A DNA stretch of 64,000 nucleotides from Nymphaea colorata. Its lineage: Eukaryota. Position 1 is the stretch's first letter. Each line of letters begins with the position of its first letter. The notes beneath the pieces were generated by a model. The model was not told the origin of the DNA. It saw only the letters and a program-made list of their open reading frames with translations, and ran no database searches. The stretch is taken from positions 35,898,001 through 35,962,000 of the forward strand of contig NC_045138.2 in assembly GCF_008831285.2 (NCBI RefSeq), in the 5' to 3' direction. The translations under genes and the position numbers were made by a program. Below are positions 37,429-55,073 of the stretch, one piece after another.

Positions 37429-38488
37429 TCTGCGACAGTTGTTGTGCTCTGCTTACTGGGGTAGAGCCCTTGGACTTGCCGCTGCTACAGTCTGGAAAAT
37501 TGATAAGCTTCTTGCCAATTTTGTTTGGGCTGACACTGATCACCAGCGGCGGGGTCATCAAGCTCAGTTGGACATATGGGCGGAGTAGAAATTTTTTAAG
37601 AGAGAACAAGTTTTTAACAGAGAAAATATCATTTTTGTAGTTGGACAACCTTGTGTAAGCCGGTTGGTGAAAGGGGAATCGACATCCATACTCTCAATAG
37701 GGCTGTGTTGATCCGATGGCCATTAATGGTGGAAGAAATACCTCCCTCTTAACAGCCTTTGGGTACCAAGTCTGATGACTGAAATTATTGTCAGAAGACA
37801 AAGAACCGCATCAACGTCCCTTGCCCACACATGAGGGCACGCACAAACTCCACGCCAGGAAAAAAAAAAAAAAAAAGCCTCAGCAAAAAAAACTTGGTGC
37901 ATGCTTGTCACATGGAAAAGTACGTCTGATCAATTGTCATACTTTCCGGATGTTTCTAAAATTATCATGCATAAGATCAATTGTCACATGGAAAACTTTA
38001 TTTCGGTCTTTATTAAAGTTATCATACTTTCTGAAATTGTTGTGAATCTCCGTTTCCTGATCACCAACTTCGCAAATTAACCTTTGAAATTAACATATAT
38101 TTTAAAACGAACCAACGTGTGTATATAGGCTATAGAAAAAACTTAAATTTAAAATGATTTTCAATTTGTTTTTTATTAGTATGTTAGCCGGATATGGAAT
38201 TAATGCACGTTTTGGCCGATCACATGGTTTGATTCAATCTCCTATATTCTGATTTTATAAACCTGCCGATTGGCAGTGTATCTGCCTATACATTAACGTT
38301 CTATATTTTCCTCATTTCGAATTGATGTCTGACGTTGGGATGCGGGTCCAAATTGTCTAGCTAAGGAGAAAAGATATGCACATGCTTTTCTATGATTGCC
38401 TACAACGAGGTTCCAAGAAAGCGGGGATCATCACGAGAATCACATTTTCCGGATCCTGCAGTGCAGACGAAGGTTGGTCGTCTTGTTC

Positions 38489-38496
38489 TATATAAA
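38489..38496 (+). promoter_or_regulatory. Candidate TATA box of + strand TPS (paralogous TATAAA at 58691)
   Basis: TATATAAA about 110 nt upstream of the ATG at 38604, conserved upstream of the ATG at 58804. Confidence 0.5.
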
Positions 38497-41400
38497 TGAA
38501 TTAGAGGCTCGTTCCTCCAATTCATTGGGAATTGGGCTCTAGTTCCACACAACCGACGCCCGCCTTTGAGTCTTTTCATCGAATTGGTTCTTCTGTTGCC
38601 AATATGGTTCAAGGTTTAGGTTGCAACATCTCCATCCTTAAAACTGAGGAACTCAAGGAGAAAGTAAGGAGGAAGTTCAATGATACCAACGACGAGTCGG
38701 AGCTCTTGAAATCTATCGACTCTCTCCATCGCCTCGATGTTGCTTACCACTTCTCTCAAGAGATGGAAACTAAGTTGAGCTCCATCTACCATAAATTTAT
38801 GGAAGATTCGACACTGACGATCATGACTTGCATTCAGTAGCCCTTCGATTCAGACTCTTACGGCAGCATGGCTTCTGCGTCTCCCCAGGTGAATCCAATC
38901 CAAGCCGGATTGTTCTGACCCGTCTTCAATTTCCACCACTCCCTTGGTCATGTTTTCCTCCCCTGCATTGTGCATTAAAAAATACAGAGTTTCATGCAGT
39001 TAGCCTCAGGTGAATAGCATAGGTGGGCAGGGTAGGAGGCGCACGCAACTTACACACGCAGTAAAAGTGGACGGACGTTTGTGAAATTTTTTTAAAAGAA
39101 ATATTCTTTCTTGTCTTCATCCTTTTTTTTTTTTTACTGAACGTATTTAACCATACTAAAATCATGCACCAATATTATGCATATAACCAACTTCGAGCTG
39201 TCATGCGTCTTAGTTAGATTTTCATGGACACTATACCTCTGCATTTAAATGGCGGGGGTACACTACATAACTAAAAAGGGAGTATCAGTGTGATCCTTAA
39301 AAGAGAGTATCACTGCGATCCCTAACAGCCACCTAGCTCAAGACCTTCAAAGCAAAGAGAATGGAGAGACTTCGAGGTCTCATTAGGATGGTGGGTCGTA
39401 ATCTTCTCACTTGCCTGTCAAATAGCAGCAGTCACAGCTTTAGGAGTCATTAACCGTCAAAATTTAATACTAAAGAATTTTATAGCTCTGTATGTGATTT
39501 TAATGGCAGATCTGTATGTACAACAAATTGATGTGGGGAAGTCTGGTTGATGGACACGAAGTAACAGAAAATATTGGACAATCGATCGTTATCAAGATGC
39601 ATTCAAGAAAAGATAGCATGCATCACACTCGCAACTTTTTCCTTCCCTTTCGTAGCGGGCTAGTTGAACTAATTCTTTCTTATTTTACGACGTAGATGTA
39701 TTTCAAAGGTTCAAGGATGAGGAAGGGAGATTCGACCTCGGTTTGGCAAAAGATGCAAGTGGTTTGATGAGCCTGTATGAAGCTGCACAGCTTGAACATC
39801 CAGGAGAAGACATCCTCGAAGAGGCCAAAAACTTTGCTACATCACACCTTCAGGCATTAGTTCCATTTCTTGAACCCTCTCACGCCAAGCAAGTAGAGCA
39901 TGTGCTAGAGCACCCTTTCCATAAGAGCTTGCCTAGGGTTGAGACAAGACGTTGGATAGACATTCTCCGAGATGGCTGCGAAATAGATCGAGATATGGTA
40001 GATCTAGCGATATTGGACTTCAACCACGTCCAGTCCATTCACCAAACAGAGCTTAAAGAATTTTCTCGGTAAACCTTTTTCATTCTTTCTTTGGATCTTA
40101 CACTCTCGTCTTCTCATCGCTTGTTTTGAAAAAAAAAATAATAATAATTGATGTGCTGCGGTTAACATATATTGCACGATCTAATATACTCGAGGAATTC
40201 TTGAAGGTGGTGGGAAGAGACAGGAATAAGTAAGGAAATGGGATCTCTTGTAAGGAACCAACCTATGCTTTGGTTCATGTTATCCTGTTTGGCGTTGCCA
40301 GAGCCACAGTTCTCAAGGTGCAGGATTGAACTTGCCAAACTTACAGCGATGGTCTTTGTAATTGATGATTTCTTTGATGTTTGTGGAGAGTTTGAAGATC
40401 TGGTCCTCTTCACTGAAGCTGTCGACAGGTAAACCATTAATCTTGTAAGGCCAACATATATATTCACATCGATTAGTTGCATTCGTCTCAATTAGACCAG
40501 GTGAAATTTTCACTTATGGGTAATAGTACTCTTCAAAAATGGACTTGTGTGAAGCCCACAATGTAGATCGGTGGTCCATGTGATGAAGTCATCGATCAGT
40601 CTCATTAAGTTTGTCATTGTTCATGTTCCTTAGCACTGGTTGGCCATCCTGGCTCTGTAAAATTCAGACACGGATCCAAGATGTAAATTTGGTGACACCA
40701 AACAGATCTAACATGCAACATGATCAAGCGGCTAATTATTTCTAGATATATATTTGATATTGCATTTACTGACTGTTTTCACTGATGAATCACAATTGGA
40801 TTTTCAGTTTGGACCCAACATCTGTGGAGCCGCTTCCCAACTGCATGAACTTGTGCTTCGTGGCTTTAATGAACGTAGTGAAAAACGGAATTGGATTTTT
40901 GGCCCTTAAACCGCAGGGCAGCGTCGACATACTCCATCGTTCCAATGCAATGGTATGGCTGCCAATTCTTTCATGTCTTCTACAATGCGTTTGTTTGGTC
41001 ATGTCCACCAGTCTTCATGTTCCATTTATTAAGTTTACCCATCAATATTTCTTCGTCCCGATACTTATGTTTAGGCATTGGAAGGGACGTGTAGCAAATT
41101 CCTTCAAATCAACAAGCAATAGTTACCAATTAAAGCACATCAATTCAGACACCCAAGTGTTGATGCTTTTAGTTGCAAAAAATTTGAAGAGAAACCCAAG
41201 TGTTGTGATGCTTTTAGTTGTTCCATACAATTCAAACACCTTTACGGGTCTCTCTTTTCGTGTGGCAAGTATTTAACTTGTCGAGTACGCATTTAACTTG
41301 TCAAGTACGCGTTCTTGATGTTAGAAAGAAGGCTTTTTTGATCTAAGAAAAAAAAGATGGAAAAGAAAAAGTGATCCTACGAGAATGACGGTATGAATAG

Positions 41401-42756
41401 ATCGATGGGACCACAAATGAAATGAATGAAACGTGCGAGAGGAAAACAGCGTTTTCTTGAATACGCAAAACAGGCTTTCCACGTTCAAGGAGTTGCTTTT
41501 AATGTTTATATATTCATCAACATTTCATCTATTTCGTTTGAACATAACAAAGGGAGTCACTTCACCAAATTAATTTCTCTATAAATTGTCATCAATTATT
41601 GAGCACGAGGTTTAATTGTAAATATGGGGATTTTGCTTCTAAATATTCCTTTTTATGCAAGTTTGTGCAAGCTACAACTGCTATTGATTAGTATCCCCAA
41701 AAGTGAAAAACGTAAATAAGCATTTTGTCACGTAGCATTAACGTTACACAGAACACCAATGTCTTTGCATTTTGCCATATGATTGTATATCTTAAACGAT
41801 GAATATATGTCACAGTCGTTTGATGCAGATTTATAATAATCTTAGAGCTTTTACACCAGCTGATTGTTGATGGCCCCAAATCACCAGCACTACTAAGGTG
41901 GTTTAATTTTGAAACTTGCAGTGGGGGTCTCTCTGCAATGCTTTTCTGCAGGAGGCGAGATGGTTGAGATCGGAGTATGCACCAACTGCAAACGAGTACC
42001 TAAGGGCCCGTTTGATGGGCAGATGAAATTTAACGCGGTAAATTTACCAAGGTAAATTTTTCTAGAAAAATTTAGTGGATGAAATTTTACCCTCTTCCAA
42101 AACGAGGCCCTGTTTGATTGTCGGGTGAAATTTAACGTGGTAAATTTAACCATGTTTGATGAACATGAAGAATTTAACGTGGTAAATTTAACCATGTTTG
42201 ATGCACAGGGAAAATTTAACCTGGAAAATGTTGTTTTTTTTCTCCTCCCCAATTCCACTTTGGAAGGAGTAAGAATGCTAACTTACAAAACAACAAAAGA
42301 TCACCACTCAAATAAATGCCACAAAAGCTTGTGTTTCGAAGTAGAAACATCTAACGAGAAAGATCATCACCTCATCACCGATTCTTATATGTACAGATTA
42401 CCCAAGCACACCACCAAACGAGAAAGATCATCACCTCATGAAACCACCACCAAGCCAAAACCAATAAACAAAAAATGGACTGTAGAACCCATATATTTCT
42501 TCATCAATCATCCCAAAACAAATCACCATACAGCCAGTTCATTAAAAGACACGGCCATTCACACGATATATATAACAAAAGGCAAAAAAAAATATCTAGC
42601 AACACATTACAACAGAAAACACCTTCTTAACTTAATCTACAACTGCAAAAGTTATATATTTGTTCCTAAAAACATTACACAGAAAGTGTCCACAAAAGTT
42701 ACATGAGTACGAATCCACAAAATGGTGTACTTTCTACTAAGAAGAAAAAACAAAGT

Positions 42757-43083
42757 TCAATGAGTACATATCCAACAAAGAAAACATGTAATCACAAAAC
42801 AAGTAATCCAACATTTCTGGCTGCACTTTCGTTCTTCAAACTTCGTGTCTTCTATATCTTGTTTTGCGATGACATCTTCAATGAGTGGAGACCTACGTAC
42901 TTGCACACCATATTTGTTCTGGAGATACTCATGCATGTGATTTTCTGCTACTTGTAATGAATCAAATGATCTGAAGATGGCACCCTTGTACCGATAGACT
43001 AATGGTTGGCACCGCTCCCAGCTGTCATATATGCCTCGCTCACGTCCTTCGAAAACCACATAGTACTTTTGGCGGGGCATCAT
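42757..43083 (-). CDS. 108-aa protein: RNase H1 N-terminal hybrid-binding (Cauli_VI-like) domain plus hydrophobic Cys-rich C-terminal tail; third ORF of the Harbinger element
   Basis: KYYVVFEGRERGIYDSWERCQPLVYRYKGAIFRSFDSLQVAE matches the YYxVxxGRxxGIYxxWxxCxxxVxxxxGAxxKSFxxxxxA pattern by eye; tail CWITCFVITCFLCWIC; no RNase H catalytic domain. Confidence 0.8.
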   Translation of the reverse strand: MMPRQKYYVVFEGRERGIYDSWERCQPLVYRYKGAIFRSFDSLQVAENHMHEYLQNKYGVQVRRSPLIEDVIAKQDIEDTKFEERKCSQKCWITCFVITCFLCWICTH

Positions 43084-44503
43084 CTTCGTTGTCCTGTTGA
43101 AAAGAAAACAAATGTCAGACAATCAAACAGAAGAAGTTGTCAACATTTATAAACAAACTTACTATTCAATTGATAATCTGTAAACATTTGAGATGATATA
43201 GCTGCTCTCAAAGCATTGTTGCTTCATCGCTGATGTGTTTGGCTTGCAATTTCAGGTTCGCTTAAGACGAAGTTATCAATCGAAGGTGCATCTTCATCAT
43301 CAAATTGCTCGGCATTTGGATTGTGTTCAATTATGAAGTTGTGCAGTACACATGTAGCAAGAACAATTTGAGCTTGTTTTTGGAAAGGATACTGAACTTG
43401 CATTTTCAATATTGGAAAACGACCTTTCAACATGCCGAAAGTTCTTTCTACTGTATTTCGGAGTGATGAATGCCTATGGTTGAATAATTCTTCTTCTGTT
43501 CTAGGTGAACGTGCTCCCCGAGTGTTAAACTCAGACATATGATAACGATGTCCTCGATAAGGTGTAAGCAAACCAACAATGTTTGGATACCCCCCATCAG
43601 CCAGATAAAATTTGCCTACAATTGAACACAATTTATTTATAGATTGATACATGCTTCTTAATAAAAGACTGAACTAGTTGGTGGAACTACGTACCTTCTG
43701 GGACAACAAATGGGTCTGTTTCATGATCTAGTGCATTGTACAATACTCTTGAGTCTGTTGCACTTCCTTCCCATCCAGCCAAAACGTAGTGGAATCTAGT
43801 ATCTAGACCGACTACACTCATGACGTTTTGAGAAACAAAACCTTTTCTATTGCGAAACCTTGCTTGATCTGAAAAAGGGACCCAAGCAGGTATATGTGTG
43901 CCATCGATTGCTCCTAAACAATTCTATATGACAAGGCAACTAGTTAGTCATGTTGTAGTTTGTCATGTTGTATGTGTCATGTTGAGTTCAAGATGATGAA
44001 ACTACCTCAAAATATGGAAAGAATCGTTTAGAATGTCGAATATGTGCTGGCATCATCTCATCATTGGGCCGGCGAACGTAATCCTTACCCAGTATACATA
44101 TCGCTCGTAGCACTAGGCTGACATATTTACTTATTGTTTGTCCGGAATGTTGAAACGTATTTTAAACAGCACGATTCCGTTCATTATGTCCAATTGTCAA
44201 AAGCAATATAGCTACTTGTTTTTCTACTGTAATGTCACGAGCATCCTCCAACAAATTTCTATTCCTTAGAATGTTATATAGTCTCATATATGTATGTCCT
44301 TCCATACAGAGTAAGTCCAAACAATTTCTAGGATGACCGCGAAGCATTAGTTGGACAAAAGATGTACCAGCATCTCGAAATGGATGAACAATCCTCCTAG
44401 ATGATGGTCGGTCTTTCAACCAAAAGAAGATGAAGACAAAAACCATTCGAATGATGAAAAGCACTCGTTCATCGTCGTCATCGAACATGTCAAAATCAAT
44501 CAT
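43080..44503 (-). pseudogene. Harbinger/PIF DDE transposase (DDE_Tnp_4, HARBI1/ALP1-like), ~397 codons, two in-frame stops
   Basis: Exons 44503-44006, 43923-43695, 43615-43163 and probable 43093-43080. Motifs CLGAIDGTHI, GWEGSATD, YLADGGY, FNHRHSSLRNTVERTFG. In-frame stops TAA 44164-44162 and TGA 43226-43224. Confidence 0.9.
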
Positions 44504-44680
44504 TTCGACTAAACTGCATATACATGTAAGGTACTTGAATAACAAAATCAATCATTTCGACTAAACTGCATATACATGTAAGGTACTTGAATAACAAAAT
44601 CAATCATTTCGACTAAACTGCATATACATGTAAGGTACTTGAATAACAAAATCAATTATTTCGACTAAACTGCAAATACA
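44491..44680. repeat. 52-bp tandem repeat, ~3.6 copies
   Basis: Unit CAAAATCAATCATTTCGACTAAACTGCATATACATGTAAGGTACTTGAATAA at 44491, 44543, 44595 and a partial copy at 44647. Confidence 0.9.
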
Positions 44681-44796
44681 TTGCAACAATTTCTCACTAC
44701 ATGGATGTTCATGGAATAAAAAGAAAAACACACAACAAATGTTATTGTGCCAAATGAAACATACAAATAATTAAACTAATAGACATGGAATCTTAC

Positions 44797-45753
44797 CTAC
44801 AAATCACCAAGTCTACGCGACAACCATGTCAGCCGGTCTTCAGGTGGAACGTTGAGAAAGATCATGGAATTGGTTCCCTCTCCTAACAGGTCCAGACTCA
44901 TCAGTCTCGTATGACTATCTAGTAGCCCTGTGTCCACCATCTCTTGTAAAATTTTACAACATTTGACATATTGAAACCCTCTAGAAGTATGTGTGAGGGA
45001 GTCCACATTTTTAGCTATACCGTTCAACAAATTGTAATACATGTCATTATTGGTAGACTTGTTCCGTTTTGACCTACGTGTACTTGTATTGGTTGTCGGA
45101 TTCTCAGTTGTAGGAGTTGTAGGTAGTGGCGACTGTGTAAATGACTGTTCACTATCAGGCTGCATGTACGAAGGTGATGTCTGAGATGCAGGTGTACATG
45201 GGAGTGGTTCAGTCTCAGCTTCAAGCACGTTGTTTAATGTGACTGCGTTTTGCCCAGTTGCATGAGATTCGCCATATACCTCGGCGAACTCATCATAGTA
45301 TCTCCAGACTTTTGGACCTCTGTACTTTTTCCTATTCGGATATTTCTGAAAAAATTCATGTGTTCAAATATTGCAGAAGCAAATACATGTGAGACAAAAC
45401 CTAACAATATTAATTTTATAATTTACCTCAATGTAGTCGTTCCATACTTGGGGGTCGACCTCAATGCATTTGTTAATTGGGTCGTAGCCAAACCCACTTG
45501 TGTTCAACATTTCCTTCATCACTGTCAAGTTGGGTTTGAAATACTTCAATTTGTTTTTTATTTTGTCTTTCGTGAATTCTGGACCGAATCTATCCATCAT
45601 TGCTTTTTCAATAGCTGTGTATGCTTTGGGCTTCAAACCTCCGCCGGATTTCATGCCAGGGATGCGTGACTGCTCCACAAGAAGCTGGACTAAGTAATCC
45701 ATTTGTGGTTCAGTCCACGTAAGATTTTCTCTTGAAGGACCGTTGTCTTCCAT
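44797..45753 (-). CDS. Harbinger ORF1, Myb/SANT-like DNA-binding protein, 2 exons, 291 aa, intact
   Basis: Exons 45753-45427 and 45345-44797 in phase 0; motifs NLTWTEPQMDYLVQLL, IKNKLKYFK, SGFGYDP, WNDY, YGESHATG typical of plant Myb_DNA-bind_3 Harbinger proteins. Confidence 0.9.
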
Positions 45754-47236
45754 GTTAACGTTTTGTATAATAATTCTTCACAGTAACAGTAATATAAATC
45801 TAGCATGAAGAACAGTTGTACGATAAAGAACGACAAAGGAGCATCAGAAACCAAAAGAAAAAGCATGACATAAAGTTCCCACCATTGCCAATGTGGTGCA
45901 TAAGTAGACCTTTCATACACAGAAAAGAAAGGAAATTCATCTCAAGCTATGCTAATTACGCAATTATGATCTTACAATCCATATGTGCAGAAAATGGGTT
46001 TCCAATAACTAAACTTCACTCAAGCTATCTCAAAATTACCACCACATTCAGAAATTTGGAGTTCAGAAATAGATTCCCAATGAGGCTCCATGGCAAGAAG
46101 TTGATTCAAAAATTATTCTGCTCGCCACATTTCAAAGTTCACAACCACTTCGGCAATTCACAGAAGTTTAGAGAAAAATGCATGGCATTATCTTCAACTA
46201 GATAACAATGGACAAGCTCAAAGACACTTTAAACAGAAGCACATGGTATTAACTCCAAACAGAACTTCAAAATATGCAATCAATAGGGAGTAAATATGCT
46301 GGAGAACAAGATTGACCACATTCAAATGTTGAATCAACCATACAGGGAAATGTTCGCTCAGGAACCTAGAAAAATAACACAATGATTTGCCTGGAAGACG
46401 ACAGACATTTATAAAATAACAGTTATCCTGTGGGCAGCTACACATACCCACTTCCTATAATTTTTGAATGATGAGGTAAATTAGCACAAAAAATTTAATA
46501 AGATCCTCTGTTACTTTATATAAATGAAAAAGAAAGGACATAGCAGCAGCAAAACCAAGAAGACATAAGCTTCAGATAAAACAAGATAGATCCCAGCACC
46601 TACATTCACAATATTCCAGCTTATCTAGTTTTCTTCATGAGAAGACGTCCCCTTATTCACTTACAAGGCCCCTTGATCACACTATAATGCTTTAGTGCTC
46701 AAGATTGTGAATGTTGGTTTTCAGACAGAGACAGGGACTATCGCAGGTTTCAAGAAAACTGAAAATCACTCGGCACTGTTACAAATATTGGTAATACCAG
46801 GTTCCACATTAGCAATATGGCGAGCATGGTTTTTGATCTCAAAATCAACACCCCACCACTCCTGCCAAACATAATCAATGCCCACTGTATACAGATATCT
46901 CACCAAGAACAAAGAGTGAAAAGGCGTGGGGTCACAGAGCAGAAACAGCAAGAAAGATGAAATTGTTCTCCATTTCCATTCTCTAAATAAAATAACACCA
47001 AGATCAAAAACTTCGAAGTAAACTGCAGAACCTCAAGAACGATAAGGATAACTACAATTCTTCTATTACTTAGCAGCTCGTTTACACAGACAGCCGCAAA
47101 TAAGAACGATAAGAAATGTGAACACCCAACAAGAGAAACAAAACATGAAATTAAAGAAAAAAACACAAAAGAACCACACAAATCAAAGATACAAAAAGCG
47201 GAAATGGAGGAGTGAAGATTATGGCGTCTGAGGGAA

Positions 47237-47303
47237 CTACCCAGCACAGAGAAAGGGGGGAAATGTGCGGAAGAAAGGGGGGAAATGTGGGCAGCTAGCG
47301 ACG

Positions 47304-47339
<36 letters not shown>

Positions 47340-47554
47340 CAGAGAGATATACCGGCATAAAAATGTCCGACGGCGGCCGGTTGAGGGTGTTGCGACGGTC
47401 GACGGTGAGACCTGGCAGTGAGAAGGCACGAGGGAGGAAAAAATGGGGGCGTTTGAGGGGGGAAAAAAATGGGGGCATTTGAAGGTGCTACCCAGCACAG
47501 AGAAAGGGGGAAAATGTGCGGAAGAAAGGGGGGAAATGTGGGCAGCTAGCGACG

Positions 47555-47600
<46 letters not shown>

Positions 47601-47695
47601 TATATATATACCGGCAGAAAAACCTCCGACGCCGGCCGCTTGAGGGTCTTGCGACAGTCGACGGTGAGACCTGGCAGAGAGAAGGCACGAGGGAA
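47237..47695. repeat. ~250-bp tandem duplication with (GA)n microsatellites inside the Harbinger right end
   Basis: CTACCCAGCACAGAGAAAGGGGG... unit starts near 47237 and at 47488; both copies contain (GA)n and GTCGACGGTGAGACCTGGCAG. Confidence 0.85.
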
Positions 47696-48634
47696 GAGGA
47701 GTTGCGGAGGGAGGTCGAGCGTTGCGGAGACTTCGAACGCTGTGGAGGGAGGTCGAGCGTTGCGGAGGGACTTCGAGTGCTGCAGCAGAATAGCATGATG
47801 GGTATATTTCGAGCGGGTGGAATTCCACCCGCTCCCTCTTCGGTTAAACGGGTGGAATTCCACCCCGTTTGATGGCTTCTCAACCGGGGGGGTGAAATTT
47901 CACCCGCCCGTACAAATTTTTCCTCCCCCGCCCACTTTCACCTGCCCATCAAACGGGCCCTAAAGAACGCGACCACCACCAGCGGCTTGATTCTTTTTCT
48001 AACCTATGCCTTCTTCATCTTGGGCGGCCAGCAGATGTCAATTATGAAGCCACTCAACGCCACTCCAAGACTCATCCACCTTCCCGCAGCTATATTTCGA
48101 CTGTGGGATGATCTTGGTACCTCCCAAGTATGATGGTGCCCATCTCTTTGAAATATATCTCTCTCTCTCTTTCTCTAATGTAATCTTCTTGTGGTGTTTT
48201 TATCAGGATGAAAAAGATCGAGGATATGATGCTTCCTACATAGAGTTCTATATAAAGGAGAACGACGTTTAGGAAGAATGCGCACGCAAGGAAACTTTGA
48301 ATTTGATTGGCGATGCGTGGAAGAAGCTGAACCAGGCGAGCTTGCAAAGTGGTCTTCATGATTTTCCTCCTGCCTTCATCAGGCTTGCCCTTAATTGTGC
48401 TCGCGTGGGGCAGCTGTTATATGCGTTTGGCAAAGACGATCGGCAAACAACCATCAAGGAACACATTAGGAAGATGCTTATTGAAAAAATTCATGTTTGA
48501 CGGCGGCCACTAGCGTGTCATGGATAGAATTTTTCATCAAACATAAAACGAGAAAATTGAGGACCTGACAGCAACTTGGTTGGCTTCATGTAGACCGTCT
48601 CCCAAGGCCATGACACTGTGTTCCATGTAAGCCC

Positions 48635-49470
48635 TGTTGAAAAAATAAAAAAAAGTAAAACAAATAAGAACAAGCTTAAAAAACTTGTTTTTGCATGGTT
48701 TTTCACCAAGGCCATCGTAGCCTTAGTTACATAGACCAGCTTAAATTGTTAAAGTTCCTTTAATCTTGACAATGATAAATTTAGGAAATTAAATTTGATT
48801 TTTGTGGAAAGATTCCTTTATCATTAATTTTGATTGATCTTGTTGTGATTCTCTTCTTTAATCTCTCTAAAACGGTTGCTTTTCAACCTTATCATTAACA
48901 TCTTCTCTAAAAAAACTGGACGATGAATCTAAAAGTCCAAGTTTGCTGCAGAACTTTGTAAAAGGTAACCATGTCATCTTTTTGGTAGTGATTGGACGAA
49001 CCCAAATTTGCTTCATGAAGTTTTTGTGAAGGTAGATCGTGCTTTGGCAGAGATTCAGAAATCACAAGTTTGACTCCTCAATATTTTCTCTACATGATCG
49101 TGTTCTTGTTTTGGTGAAGAAGGCAACGAGGCATTTTGTCATATGTAGGCCAAGACTTCATTCTTCTTCATCAAGCATTCTACTACTCTGATAACATGTT
49201 GAAAAAATAAAAAAGAAACAGAACAAATAAAAACAAGCAATCAAAAACTTATTTTCATTAAATGTGCATGGTTTTTCACTATGGAAGGCCATCACGAGCC
49301 TTGGTTAAATGATACCTAGAACGAGCTTAAATAGTTGAAGTTCCTGTAATCTTGACAAGAATAAGCATGAGAAGCTAAATCTGATTTTTGTGAAAGTGTT
49401 TTCATTTTCCTTTATCATTAATTTTAATTGTTCTCTTTTGAACGGTTACCTTTAAACTTTATCGTTAACA
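48635..49470 (-). mobile_element. TRIM (miniature non-autonomous LTR retrotransposon), 836 bp
   Basis: Direct repeats 48635-48900 and 49197-49470, each TGTTGA...TTAACA. On the - strand a PBS-like TGTTATCAGAGT (tRNA-Met consensus TGGTATCAGAGC) follows the 5' LTR and a purine tract AGAGAAGA precedes the 3' LTR. Decayed TSD AGCCC/AACTC; empty site near 61940. Confidence 0.82.
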
Positions 49471-49822
49471 AACTCATACAGTACTTCATGATTAGTACAT
49501 ATTTAATATGATCAATCATTCCCAACCACTTCTTTAGAGCAACCTTCTCTTCCATATCCGGGCCATCTGTGCAACTTCGCCAAATAGATATGCTTACTTT
49601 GAGTCAATACAAATCAACATGTCTCATTGGGGTGAAAAGATGAGAAGAGGCAAAGGATAAATGTATGCCAATTAATTGCTCACTTGAGTAATCTTCCGAG
49701 ATCCTCTTTCTGCCTCATTAGGGTAGAGAAAGAAAGAGCAGCACACTGCACACACTTATATATCCAGCTTGAAGTTTCTTATTATTTTTAGTCAACTTTG
49801 TGTGTGTATATATATATATATT

Positions 49823-51004
49823 ACATCTGTGGAGCCGCTTCACCACTGCATGAACTTGTGCTTTGTGGCCACAAATTAATGAAACGTGCGAGAGGAAAAC
49901 AACGTTTTCTTGAATACGCAAAACTAGCATCCCACCTTCGAGAAATTACTTTTAATGTTCATGTATTCATCAACATTTCATCAATTTAGTTTGAACATAA
50001 CAAAGGGAGTCACTTCACCAAAATTAATTTCTCTATAAATTGTCATCAATTAATGAGTGACCAATCCAGGAGGTTTAATTGTAAATATGGGGATTTTGCT
50101 TCTAAATATTCCTTTTTATGCAAGCTTGTGCATGCTACAACTGCTATTGATTAGTGTCCCCAAAAGTGAAAAACGTAAACAAGCATTTTGTCACTTCGCA
50201 TTAACGTTACAGAGAACACCAATGTCTTTGCATTGAACGATATGATTGTATATCTTAAACCATTTACATACGTCACAGTCGTTTGATGCAGCTTTATAAT
50301 AATCTTAGAGCTTTTATTCCAGCTGATCGTTGATGGCCCCAAATGACCAGCACTACTAAGGTGGTTTAATTTTGAAACTTCCAGTGGGGGTCTCTCTGCA
50401 ATGCGTTTCTGCAGGAGGCGAGATGGTTGAGATTGTAGGATGCTCCAACTGCAAACGAGTACCTAAAGAACGCGACCACCACCAGCGGCTTTGATTCTTT
50501 ATCAAACCTATGCCTACTTCATCTTGGGCGGCCAGCAGATGTCAATTATGAAGCCGCTCAACGCCACTCCAAGCCTCATCCACCTTCCTGCAGCTATATT
50601 TCGACTGTGGGATGATCTTGGTACCTCCCAAGTATGATGGCACCCATCTCTCTGAGATATCTCTCTCTCTCTCTCTCTCTTTCTCTAATGTAATCTTCTT
50701 GTGGTGTTTTTATCAGGATGAAAATGATCGAGGATATGATGCTTCCTACATAGAGTTCTATGTAAAGGAGAACGACGTTTCGAAAGAATGCGCACGCAAG
50801 GAAACTTTGAATTTGATTGGCGATGCGTGGAAGAAGCTGAACCAGGCAAGCCTACAAAGTGGTCTTCATGATTTCCCTCCTGCCTTCGTCAGGCTTGCCC
50901 TTAATTGTGCTCGCGTGGGGCAGCTGTTATATGCGTTTGGCAAAGACGATCAGCAAACGACCATCGAGGAACACATTAGAAATACATTAGAAATAAGCTT
51001 ATAG
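49823..51004 (+). pseudogene. TPS 3' fragment (piece of exon 4, exons 5-6)
   Basis: Exon-4 remnant near 49823-49870 fused to intron sequence; exon 50385-50631 with a +1 frameshift near 50490 (RLWDDLG); exon 50717-51004. Confidence 0.88.
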
Positions 51005-51341
51005 AAAAAATTCATGTGCCGGCGTGTCATGGATGGCATTATTGATGAATATTATACATAGTTTGGAAAGACAAAATCTTTTCTTTTACAAATTAGGGTT
51101 CTTTACCTCCTGGCCACAGAAAAGCACCAGATTTGACCCATACCAGATTGTGCCCTTCCTCCTCAGCAAGACAAAAATCCAAATCTGCCCAATTAACAAT
51201 GGTAAGGTGCTGAATTGACGATGGTATGATTGATGCATGACAAAGCTAGTGAGATTATATTGGCCAGAGGTCCAAGACACTGGTGTCACACACCAAAATA
51301 TCAAATTTTTCGTTTTCTTTCTTTAATTGTCAGCATACGAG

Positions 51342-51667
51342 CTATGTCACAGCATACTAGCTATGTCACATGGTATGGGATGTGAGTGCGGGTGCCACCG
51401 GAGCGGGATGCGGCAAGTTCTAAAAAAACATTGGGTACGGGAGCGGCATATATATATATATATATATATTATTTGTTATATAAATAATTTTATTTGTTCA
51501 TATTTTAAACTTTTTTTTTAAAGGTTACCTTGAATTGTTATATCGATGAAAACTTGGCCAAAACATTTTTTAAAATGACCAAAACACATTTAACACCGCC
51601 AGCACCCACACCAATGTTGGTGCGGGTGGAGGTGCGCCACCATAGTTGGTGCACCCGTGTGACATAG
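51342..51667. mobile_element. hAT-type MITE
   Basis: TIR CTATGTCACA / TGTGACATAG; perfect 8-bp TSD CATACGAG (51334-51341, 51668-51675); 19-bp duplication at the left end. Confidence 0.85.
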
Positions 51668-52251
51668 CATACGAGAGACTGAGAGAGGCCAGTCATGTAT
51701 CAGCCTTTTGTTGAAGATGATGTCTGCTCTTGCTCTTACTGTTTTCCCATTGTTTTTTTTTTGAACTCTTTATGTTTTTTTAATGCTGCTCTATCTTGTC
51801 TTGTATTTTCCTTTTTCGAACGTTTTAGGTAACCGATTCTCGGTTTTTTTGGATGATCGGGTCCGATCCGATCGGTTTACATCCATACACAAAGAAGCCA
51901 TTGTTATGTTCACCCACCGCCTTCTGCGACAGATGGACTCCCTATACATACAAGAGAAGCTGTTTGTTTGGGGTACTGGTTACGTTATATATAGACATCC
52001 AATATCCTCATTTCGATCACCACCCGGTACTGTCGTTATTTCGCCTCTCCTTCCACAGTACTCTCTCCATTTCACTGAGCTTCTTTTGCACTTCGATCCT
52101 CACAGCCCAGGCCAGCCAAAAAGCCTTTTGATCCCTTACTTCTCCTGTTGATAAAATGAGTCGCTTCTTCTGCATTTCCTCTCCTCAAACTAATTACCAT
52201 CTTTCAAGTCCTTTATCAATTACTTCTCCTCCTCTTAATAAGAGGCCGCCA

Positions 52252-52380
52252 ATGGCTTGCAACTTCCCCATCACCAGAAATGAGGAATTGAAGGAGAAAG
52301 TAAGGAGAAAACTCATGGCTACGAACAATGCGTTGGAGCTCATCAAATCTGTCGATTCCCTCCACCGCTTCGACATCATT
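52252..52380 (+). pseudogene. TPS N-terminal relic
   Basis: MACNFPITRNEELKEKVRRKLMATNNALELIKSVDSLHRFD aligns by eye with the start of the 38604/58804 genes; similarity then ends. Confidence 0.75.
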
Positions 52381-55073
52381 TTATCAACAACTCAATGGAA
52401 AAAAACGCAATTTATTCACTAATTCAGCACCCAATTTGGTACACTTTTGGATGACTACAATTTATTCACTGAAATACAATTCTTTTTTATTTTTTATATA
52501 CATTAACTAATTTTTAAAAAACTTTTACATATAAATTAAATTTTTAAAAGCTAAAAAGACAGGGTGCAGCAAGGCCCTCACGGACCCCCTGCCTCTGCCC
52601 TTGTCTTATGTCAATTTTAAAAAAAAAATAAACTAGTTATTTTTTTATAAGCATTCTCACGCGTAACATTATGCAGATCAACAAAATTATTTGTTTACAT
52701 TTTATAAAATCTTAATCACACACCCAACAAATATTTGTACTGATTTTTTTTCATGAAAAGGGTTCGATGTTTTAAATTGTAGCTGGCGACTGAGGATTGA
52801 CGGCTGGGGACCAGTGAAAGAAGAAATGGCAGTCACCAACCACCAGTGACTGACGAAATGGTGTGAGATGATGGGTTTTGTTATCTATTTATTTTTGTTT
52901 ATATATGCAACTTATAAATGCATGTGTTAGAAAAGCAAAAATAAATAAAGGCGGGTACTTTTGCAAAACAATTCTTTGTCCAATTTCATATGCCTTGCTT
53001 ACTTGCCTATACATAATAATTGATTTCCCTCCCATCAGCTATACAAACATTTTTAGTTAGGAATTCTCATATATTACTACACGTAAACGGTATTAAGTGG
53101 ACACTGTCTAATGAAAACTCTTCTTTCCCTTTCTTTATCCACTGTTGCAAACTTACTAGAAATTAAGTTAAAAATTTCTGGCTAACGGAGCAGTACTATT
53201 TAAGTTTTAAACTTTAAAGGACATTCATTTCTAAAAGTTTTAAAAAATAAATGAAATATCAATACATAAATAAAGTTAATTTTGTGGGTTGGTGTGGAAA
53301 TATAATTAAGCTCTGCTACAGATCATGAACGTCCATCAATGGCATTGGCATATATTTTATGGCAAACCCCGTGTTTTTCTGCCTACAGAAATTGTGGATG
53401 GCATATTGAGGGTGACCCCTCAGTGGCGTAAGCAGCAGAATGACAATTCTTTATATATATGTGGCGGGCGAGGCATGAGGAAAAGAAGAAGCACGTTATT
53501 TATTTTGCCATTTCTCCACCTCCTCGCGCCATCTCATAAACTCTGCTATCCATACACGGGTGGAGTTCAGAATTTTTAATGAAAAAAAAAAAAGTTGAAT
53601 TACAGCTTTAAAATTTTGATAAGGGTTAAATTATTATTTTATAAAATTTTTATATATAATAAAATTCAAAATTTACATGTAATTTTTTTTTTCTTTTGAA
53701 TAAGGGTCAAGGCTCTTGCAGGTCCTTTCGCTCCTGCCTATACATCTTTACCATTAGGCAATGGGAGTAATTTCCATACGAAGAGAAGCTGATCCTTGTT
53801 CATTTTTGTGTGTTCAATTGCCCACACAAGCCGCAAACATTACAAATAAATTGAACTTCGTCATCACAAGTTCGCTGATAAAAAGATATATGATTTGATT
53901 ATTGATATACTATTCAAAGAATAAATATTTACCGCAATATTCACTGCTAAACTCCATGAGTTTATGTTACGTTTAAAAAGGACAGGGTCTAAACTATTAG
54001 AATTTAGACCCCCATTCAAAAAAAAAAAAAAATCCAGCCCCACAACAAGAAAATCTCAGCTCCACCACCGGATAGGATAATGTGAAACTTTTAATTCCAA
54101 TATATATCTTGGAAAACTCAAATTAACAAGGCCAATTCTGTTGAAGTGGACTCTATGGAGAAATAAATGTTCAGCCTTTTACAATAGATCTACATACTCG
54201 TTTTTTGCTTCTTGAAGTTCTAAGATATGCACAATGTATAACTGAAAGTGGATCCTTTGGAAGTTCATTCTTTCTTCTTCACTGCGTCCCGCGTTAGACA
54301 CCCAGTGGCTGGAGACTGGAGACTAGTGATTGATGTTTGGGGACCAGCGACGGCAGAAATGGCTGTCACCAACCAACCACCACGTGTGACTGACTGAAAT
54401 GTTTTGAGATGATGGATATTTTTATCTATTTCTTTTTTGTTTTAGGTTTTATTTTTATTTATCAACAGAAAAATCAGTGGCCAGCGATTTCTAGTTATCT
54501 CTCTTTCTGCATTGAAACCCTTTGTCGTGATTGTAGGTTCCTGAGAACCTGAAAAAGAGGGAGCTGAGACTGTCGTCGTCATCTTTAGGAGGTCTTGCAC
54601 ATCGTTCTTTCTTCTTCACTGCGTCCGGCGTTAGACGACCTAGAGACTAACGAATTGTGGTTGGAAACTGGCAATTAACGTTTGGGGACCAGCAATGGAA
54701 GAAATGGCTGTCACCAACCACCGGTGACTGATGAAATGTTTTGGCATGATGGGTTTTTTTTTTAGGTTTTATTTTTTTTTATCATCGAAAAAACCAGCGG
54801 CCAGCGATTTCTAGTTATCTCTCTCACCATTGGCATTGAAATGAAACCCTTTGTCGTGATTGTAAGTCCCTGAAACCCAAAAAGAGGGGAGCAAAGGCTG
54901 TCGTCTCTGACATCATAATGATCGTCTTTCTTTTGTTGCTTCAAATGGTCGGTTGGTGGCTGAGATGGTTGAAGCTTGGGAGGAGGGCTGCTGCTAGTAA
55001 TATATATACATCTGCTAGTTATATTTACTTTAGAGAGAGGAAATATGGAGCTGGCTATAAGGATAAATGGTCA

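Follow-up and report, generated by a model that had tools for sequence, protein, structure and literature searches.

A PIF/Harbinger transposon of Nymphaea with a very probably maintained third gene for a hydrophobic-tailed hybrid-binding domain of RNase H1 type, located in a last exon common to Myb and transposase transcripts

The stretch of DNA analysed here, called the window, comprises 64,000 nucleotides of Nymphaea colorata contig NC_045138.2 (35,898,001 to 35,962,000), and all positions below are counted from its first letter. It holds a PIF/Harbinger element of 5,957 bp (42004-47960), whose genes follow one another on the minus strand in the order Myb/SANT, DDE transposase and a third open reading frame, ORF3. 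The features of the element are listed here, with the evidence for each in brackets.

42001..42003, no strand: left target-site duplication TAA (letters; empty-site joint in DNA runs)
42004..42028, no strand: terminal inverted repeat at the 3' end of the element, 25 nt, beginning GGGCCCGTTTG (repeat search)
42006..42229, no strand: four subterminal repeats of ~38 nt, 76-100% alike (repeat search)
42757..43083, minus strand: ORF3, 108 aa (list of open reading frames and translation, which reads as originally quoted)
42763..42813, minus strand: Cys-rich hydrophobic tail, predicted membrane anchor, ORF3 residues 91-107 (hydropathy, low-confidence helix)
42940..43068, minus strand: RNase H1 N-terminal or hybrid-binding domain (PF01693), ORF3 residues 6-48 (Pfam, matches to 1qhk and 3bsu, model)
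43080..43093, minus strand: start of the shared last exon; the transposase stop TGA (43082-43080) overlaps the ORF3 ATG (43083-43081) as ATGA (RNA joints, RefSeq models)
43094..43162, minus strand: GT..AG intron of 69 nt, from transposase exon 3 to the shared last exon (X21 RNA joints)
43163..44503, minus strand: DDE transposase, exons 44503-44006, 43923-43695 and 43615-43163 (Pfam, gene model)
44797..45753, minus strand: Myb/SANT gene, 291 aa, intron 45346-45426 (Pfam; 12 RNA reads across the intron)
47936..47960, no strand: terminal inverted repeat at the 5' end of the element (repeat search)
47961..47963, no strand: right target-site duplication TAA (letters)

The element bears the marks of PIF/Harbinger transposons, namely the TAA duplication, short terminal inverted repeats of the GG(G)CC/T..GTTTG type, DDE_Tnp_4 and a Myb/SANT ORF1. 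Both inverted repeats are 25 nt long, with one mismatch between them, and in each of the DNA runs X1, X2 and X5 a contig links the two flanks across the empty site (joint 41998-47959), which indicates that the ends are correct and that the insertion is polymorphic. Other plant PIF/Harbingers (ZmPIFa, OsPIF1/2, AtPIF2, DcMaster, PePIF1, Pifvine and Ping/Pong) share the 3-bp TAA duplication; the inverted repeat of ZmPIFa starts with GGGCCCGTTTG, the same first 11 nt as here (PMC6327408, in excerpt), and PePIF1a likewise has a Myb/SANT gene followed head to tail by a three-exon DDE transposase. They differ in that no third conserved ORF has been described for them and that their two genes, in the accessible parts of PMC2836001 and also of PMC6327408, are described as apparently independent, whereas the element studied here has a shared last exon. 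Likewise, the accessible text of the grapevine (PMC2528002) and Medicago (PMC2213677) PIF surveys contains no third ORF and no RNase term. The canonical layout of two independent genes, which is a descriptive rule of the family and no criterion of the superfamily, is hence not what is found here, the element having a third conserved ORF and an exon common to its transcripts.

Several further observations concern the element and its surroundings. In the DNA runs, its ends (42107-42313 and 47696-47902) are covered far more deeply than its non-coding interior and show loose ends bearing the inverted-repeat motif; they likely mark a family of MITE-like derivatives. The 5' region contains a duplication of ~250 nt with AG microsatellites (47223-47697) as well as a stretch of ~74 nt on the minus strand (46792-46865) where RNA depth is ~65 versus 0-6 in the adjoining bins and where reads end loosely on either side; this stretch, for which no Pfam match was found, probably stems from an exon of an expressed host gene that the element captured. 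A terpene synthase domain (PF01397) lies at 39767-40069, and repeats 89-100% alike extend across the insertion (38400-41000 versus 48000-55000), so it looks as if the element inserted in a tandem terpene synthase cluster.

ORF3 is an intact frame of 108 codons (43083-42757, minus strand) inside the inverted repeats, on the same strand as the transposase and downstream of it, just as the original prediction had stated. The predicted Cauli_VI or hybrid-binding domain is borne out by profile PF01693, which matches residues 6-48 at E 1.3e-16 and 61 bits (cut-off 21), and the closest solved structures are RNase H1 N-terminal domains, 1qhk (E 2e-7) and human 3bsu (E 0.005). An AlphaFold model built on an 11-row alignment reaches pLDDT values, averaged in blocks, of 84-95 over residues 1-60 and is unreliable over residues 64-90. 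By Foldseek, this model adopts a three-strand, two-helix fold that matches 3bsu at E 6.8e-4 with an rmsd of 0.8 Å over 46 columns, and viral models labelled P6 or viroplasmin in a viral fold library match it at E 1e-3 to 1e-5. PF01693 is the only Pfam family in ORF3; the RNase H catalytic families PF00075 and PF13456, whose absence had been foreseen, are missing both from it and from three longer relatives, and the "Ribonuclease H" label on Nymphaea database records reflects the N-terminal domain only.

In the alignment with 1qhk and 3bsu, human W43 corresponds to W22 of ORF3 and K59 to R38, and the place of K60 is taken by a Ser, which is also frequent there in RNase H-linked domains. W43 and K59 have binding-surface roles in the human RNase H1 domain, and replacement of K59 and K60 by Ala lowers its affinity ~10-fold (PMC6846478, in excerpt). 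Altogether, ORF3 resembles the RNase H1 hybrid-binding domain in sequence, in predicted fold and in its equivalents of W43, F58 and K59, and is unlike RNase H1 in lacking a catalytic domain, in the Ser at K60 and in its C-terminal hydrophobic tail. The domain would probably bind RNA:DNA hybrids or dsRNA. The tail, too, is present as predicted (residues 91-107, mean hydropathy 2.1 over 17 residues); it is short for a membrane span, its helix sits in the low-confidence part of the model, and on its composition we somewhat favour a role as membrane anchor.

Transcripts were examined in four RNA runs of 2026, ~6% of each, which yielded 745 (X21), 9301 (X22), 199 (X23) and 0 (X24) aligned reads, splice joints being accepted from 3 reads upwards. 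Of the data sets listed as containing the stretch itself, none is registered as RNA. The Myb gene matches PF12776 (E 7e-16), with PF24769 slightly below its cut-off; its frame is open and its stop codon directly adjoins a donor at 44796. The transposase matches PF13359 (DDE_Tnp_4) at E 3e-17, and its two internal introns are taken from the gene model, where they are matched by database proteins, and are absent among the listed RNA joints. This copy carries premature transposase stops at 44164-44162 and 43226-43224, which render it defective; the Myb gene and ORF3 are nonetheless open. The TGA 141 nt upstream of ORF3, originally read as the end of the transposase, is GGA in all covering RNA reads (11/11 in X21 and 135/135 in X22) and is hence a premature stop of this copy and not the transposase end. 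Instead, the transposase frame continues past the 69-nt intron into the exon of ORF3. The transposase of the RefSeq N. colorata model P0272 is 96-97% identical to that of the window and open at both premature-stop places.

Two observations were made around the transposase start. Between the Myb stop and this start (44491-44681) lie three to four tandem copies of 52 nt, which overlap the first codons of the transposase. Furthermore, X22 shows a minus-strand read peak over the transposase start (43970-44590, depth up to 1320), which could reflect polyadenylation of transcripts with Myb alone or initiation at an internal site.

In X21, three donors are spliced to the acceptor at 43094, which precedes the ORF3 ATG by 10 nt: 43162 at the transposase end with 6 reads, 43694 within the transposase with 3, and 44796 directly behind the Myb stop with 7. 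X22 has joints of all three kinds, with slightly different letters and 39+5, 3 and 3 reads; since most X22 reads are less than 95% alike, they come from other copies, of a more distant subfamily. No splice joints are listed for X23 (199 reads). The RNA joints are absent from the 15 joints listed for the DNA runs, a partial control as 106 further joints exist beyond those. The earlier view of a stand-alone gene packed against the transposase therefore holds as to strand and downstream position and fails as to separateness, because the last exon is shared by Myb and transposase transcripts.

In all six junction forms, ORF3 is out of frame with the preceding sequence; stop and start lie within about 20 nt in four of them, and three have the exact AUGA stop-start overlap. 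In the window-type transposase and exon-skip forms the stop TGA overlaps the ORF3 ATG as ATGA, and the RefSeq N. colorata models P0272 and P0274 end in ...QLNRQRR, that is, at exactly this overlapping stop. The X22-type Myb form has its stop overlapping an in-frame ATG as ATGA (3 reads), and in the window-type Myb form the ORF3 ATG follows 10 nt after the Myb stop. In the two X22-type transposase forms, computed with window letters, the upstream frame enters ORF3 by ~40 nt.

Myb and transposase transcripts both end in the ORF3 exon, and the frames would suit a mechanism in which ORF3 is made as a second cistron, by ribosomes that restart at its ATG after the upstream stop. Known reinitiation after long ORFs uses AUGA or UAAUG, with stop and start within 20 nt, and needs an upstream RNA element, the TURBS type tolerating ~30 nt; caliciviruses, influenza B and SART1 have an out-of-frame AUGA after a long ORF, as here (PMC10275272, in excerpt). 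The ~40-nt overrun exceeds this limit and counts against reinitiation, and the overlap is not constant among isoforms. Unlike in those systems, the overlap in this element is created by splicing and varies with the isoform, and a TURBS-type element was not found, the Rfam scan of the element being without a match. A UGGGA motif, which we take to be the TURBS core, lies upstream of one of the three donors. Weighing the arrangement of stops and starts against these points, we give translation of ORF3 by termination-reinitiation an even chance.

Proceeding from the domain, the element, the splice joints with their frames and the conservation in two subfamilies described below, we tentatively propose, at a little less than even confidence, the following as the best explanation of the whole. 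A conserved ORF3, placed out of frame in a shared exon, would be translated by restart into a small tail-anchored protein that binds dsRNA or RNA:DNA hybrids; its anchor would leave the domain facing the cytosol or nucleoplasm, where the protein might protect transcripts of the element against silencing. In plants, small RNAs are processed in association with polysomes on the ER. The counter-silencing role is nevertheless the weakest step of this proposal, and we regard it as somewhat unlikely. The argument for it that had originally been taken from caulimovirus P6 is weakened, as a review describes the dsR of P6 as dispensable for RNAi suppression and as serving the binding of TOR, eL18 and eL13 (PMC5902531, in excerpt). 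P6 hence gives no support to a counter-silencing role, and its binding partners make a reinitiation helper the first rival, to be taken before the readings of ORF3 as a passenger, as part of a fusion or as the product of its own mRNA.

According to this first rival, ORF3 would be a miniature P6/TAV reinitiation factor that binds TOR or 60S proteins and aids translation of multi-ORF mRNAs. The dsR sits in the mini-TAV and itself binds TOR, eL18 and eL13 (PMC5902531, in excerpt), it belongs to the same domain family as ORF3, and it likewise occurs in a selfish element with multi-ORF mRNAs, such as the Harbinger makes. ORF3's model matches several P6 proteins of the viral fold library at E < 1e-3; yet these matches (20-35% identity), which set the 108 residues of ORF3 beside proteins of 420-530 residues in the matches listed, are rivalled by equally close ones to domains from phages, giant viruses and humans. 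In a domain tree on 44 columns, with host plant RNase H1 and caulimovirus P6 left out and the plant labels of ENA and metagenome sequences inferred, 24/24 plant-labelled domains fall into one group together with 14 non-plant ones of the YYVV(F/W)xG type (support 95/92). The latter mostly resemble bacterial RNase HI N-termini and include the stand-alone Alteromonas gene L089; a single origin of the plant domains is neither supported nor rejected on these 44 columns (p-AU 0.52). To our knowledge, P6 has no counterpart to the membrane tail. We therefore consider this role quite improbable for ORF3.

The close protein relatives all come from Nymphaea thermarum or N. colorata. The ORF3 domain is carried by 23 of the 26 Nymphaea records examined, and in ten of these 23 the gene model also includes Myb or transposase sequence, in agreement with the original prediction of a third Harbinger gene, here a trait of the family. 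The tail stands at the end of seven of the 23 domain records, the remaining gene models stopping earlier or running into unrelated sequence. W22 is present in all 23, and R31, F37 and K/R38 in 21 (one record is truncated and one misses a residue). A second subfamily (P0006, P0012 and P0173) keeps 32-33 of 43 domain residues versus 7-8 of 26 linker residues and still has a hydrophobic C-terminal end; in P0173, the ORF3 domain lies behind a transposase piece 88% identical to that of the window.

Read depth shows a similar pattern. At 80% likeness, where depth is no copy number and can be used as a conservation pattern only, the median depths of ORF3 and transposase bins are 3435/3924 in X1, 756/586 in X2 and 836/789 in X5, and across these three runs the ORF3 bins are 3-14x deeper than the 3' non-coding bins and 13-105x deeper than the 5' non-coding bins. 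The RNA reads differ from the window at 10 or more coding places, and five of the ten listed are silent versus 22% expected (p = 0.05), which is a weak test. In all covering RNA reads the ORF3 stop TGA is changed to TAA, which preserves the stop. The homologue listings revealed no host source gene for ORF3, and neither they nor the Pfam scans contain an RNase H domain in any Nymphaea match. The three outcomes named beforehand as telling against the gene were all examined: the Cauli_VI match is significant, the frame is kept in related elements, though by a test of neutral decay that is indirect, and ORF3 is not a near-identical fragment of a host RNase H1 gene. ORF3 is thus very probably a maintained third gene, and it is apparently family-wide in these Nymphaea Harbingers and under selection.

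A domain kept while its linker eroded between subfamilies, an open frame and hydrophobic end retained, a stop-preserving TGA to TAA change, a coding-like depth profile and the failure to find a host source gene all argue against ORF3 being a passenger, i.e. a module captured once in a common 3' UTR, rarely or never translated and spread by recent amplification. The passenger reading, to which we assign a low probability, can nonetheless point to the fact that no transcript with ORF3 first was seen, to the weakness of the silent/replacement test and to the second apparently captured piece of the element at 46792-46865. It also has precedents in the capture of host fragments by grapevine PIFs, with transduplication in Pifvine-3 (PMC2528002, in excerpt), and in a captured PF01693 gene of a fungal Helitron (PMC4289320, in excerpt).

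ORF3 might otherwise be a real protein made from its own mRNA, by way of a leader splice, an internal promoter or deleted copies, the overlaps being incidental. The N. thermarum models P0007 and P0009 indeed have in common a stretch that precedes the ORF3 exon and is joined to it, but their N-terminal stretches have no tblastn match to the leader of the element. Similarly, the RNA reads of X22 and X23 cluster on ORF3, a pattern that equally fits 3'-biased libraries. As no ORF3-only transcript, with ORF3 as first ORF behind a leader-to-ORF3 joint, is among the listed RNA joints, we hold an mRNA of its own to be rather doubtful. The least probable product is a transposase-ORF3 fusion that, for example, aims insertions at R-loops: a donor 4 nt further on would yield ...QLNSKTTKMMPRQ, as in the N. 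thermarum models P0260, P0273, P0275, P0276 and P0008, yet the +4 joint is in no RNA run's list (threshold 3 reads, ~6% of each run), the reads instead use a donor with the consensus GTAAGT, the N. colorata models in RefSeq terminate after RQRR, other models of N. thermarum join unrelated upstream exons to the same acceptor in what looks like gene-predictor behaviour, and a nuclear transposase would be hampered by a membrane tail.

Beyond water lilies, one or two such domains with a hydrophobic C-terminus occur in many paralogous records of Nicotiana attenuata, N. tomentosiformis, N. sylvestris and N. tabacum. The same design is found in ENA contigs, the tails of distant relatives having a hydropathy of 2.5-2.8, and Atlas clusters of 86-124 short Streptophyta proteins bear PF01693. 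The Myb and transposase of the window gave no tblastn match at E 1 against 96 loci from viral, metagenome and prokaryotic collections, and none of 143 Pfam-scanned proteins has Harbinger transposase or Myb families. A search for longer relatives among 7043 candidates returned three Nymphaea models only, which is weak evidence of absence, and three further scans of viral contigs found nothing. The 31 loci whose ORFs were read are mostly microbial RNase H-like genes, with L080 and L088 looking plant-derived; no Harbinger gene was found in L088.

In metagenome contig L080, a 101-aa ORF combines domain and tail (PF01693 E 2.5e-18, tail hydropathy 2.8), and an AG precedes its ATG by 2 nt; ahead of it lies an ORF whose final 33 residues can be aligned to the C-terminus of the window's Myb protein. 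This link to a Harbinger is not significant (BLASTP E 0.03; 52/2000 shuffles score as high) and serves as a lead only; a three-sequence profile did not place this preceding ORF in the top 15 of 8637 ORFs, and Pfam gave no match for it. Two other genes with such domains were noted. The Alteromonas contig L089 encodes at 1104-1445 a hybrid-binding domain on its own, in a gene of ~105 aa whose neighbours are small and of unknown function, and P0092 of Senna tora (KAF7801666.1), with two PF01693 domains and GRF zinc-finger matches, is possibly from another plant mobile element. That an angiosperm-wide PIF/Harbinger lineage has carried a membrane-anchored duplex-binding third protein for >100 million years, with restart cistrons built by splicing and a use in anti-silencing or polycistronic translation, we consider unlikely.

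Extra genes in Harbingers have precedents, in the SET methyltransferase of HarbingerS in oomycetes and the TET/JBP dioxygenase of PHISTA in rust fungi, and these, like the VANC anti-silencing proteins of MuDR VANDAL elements, are cases of a DNA transposon with an accessory gene, as here (PMC12730594, in excerpt). Those genes encode enzymes or DNA binders acting on chromatin marks, whereas ORF3 has a catalytically empty fold of the putative RNA-duplex-binding kind, together with a hydrophobic tail, in a downstream cistron and in a flowering plant. In capE of the Pleurotus ostreatus Helitron HELPO1.3, PF01693 likewise lies inside a DNA transposon, but this is a captured gene in one long copy, not a family trait, and in a fungus (PMC4289320, in excerpt). 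We found no paper on a Harbinger with a PF01693 third gene in a search whose scope excluded most subscription journals and Repbase Reports, such that an earlier curated note is possible. The third ORF of this element is real; it is conserved within the genus and unusually organised.

In summary, our study reveals a third ORF in a type of transposon that is taught and engineered as a two-protein system with independent genes. If ORF3 is maintained, this third protein and its RNA-binding fold would represent a novel sort of accessory factor among plant DNA transposons, and its exon would make it possible to test whether splicing builds a site of termination-reinitiation on an mRNA from the plant nucleus. 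Part of the large set of small plant proteins wrongly labelled "ribonuclease H" would be explained as well (Atlas clusters, 86-124 members). Should the lineage-wide reading be true, many small "ribonuclease H-like" proteins of plants in the databases would be unrecognised transposon genes.
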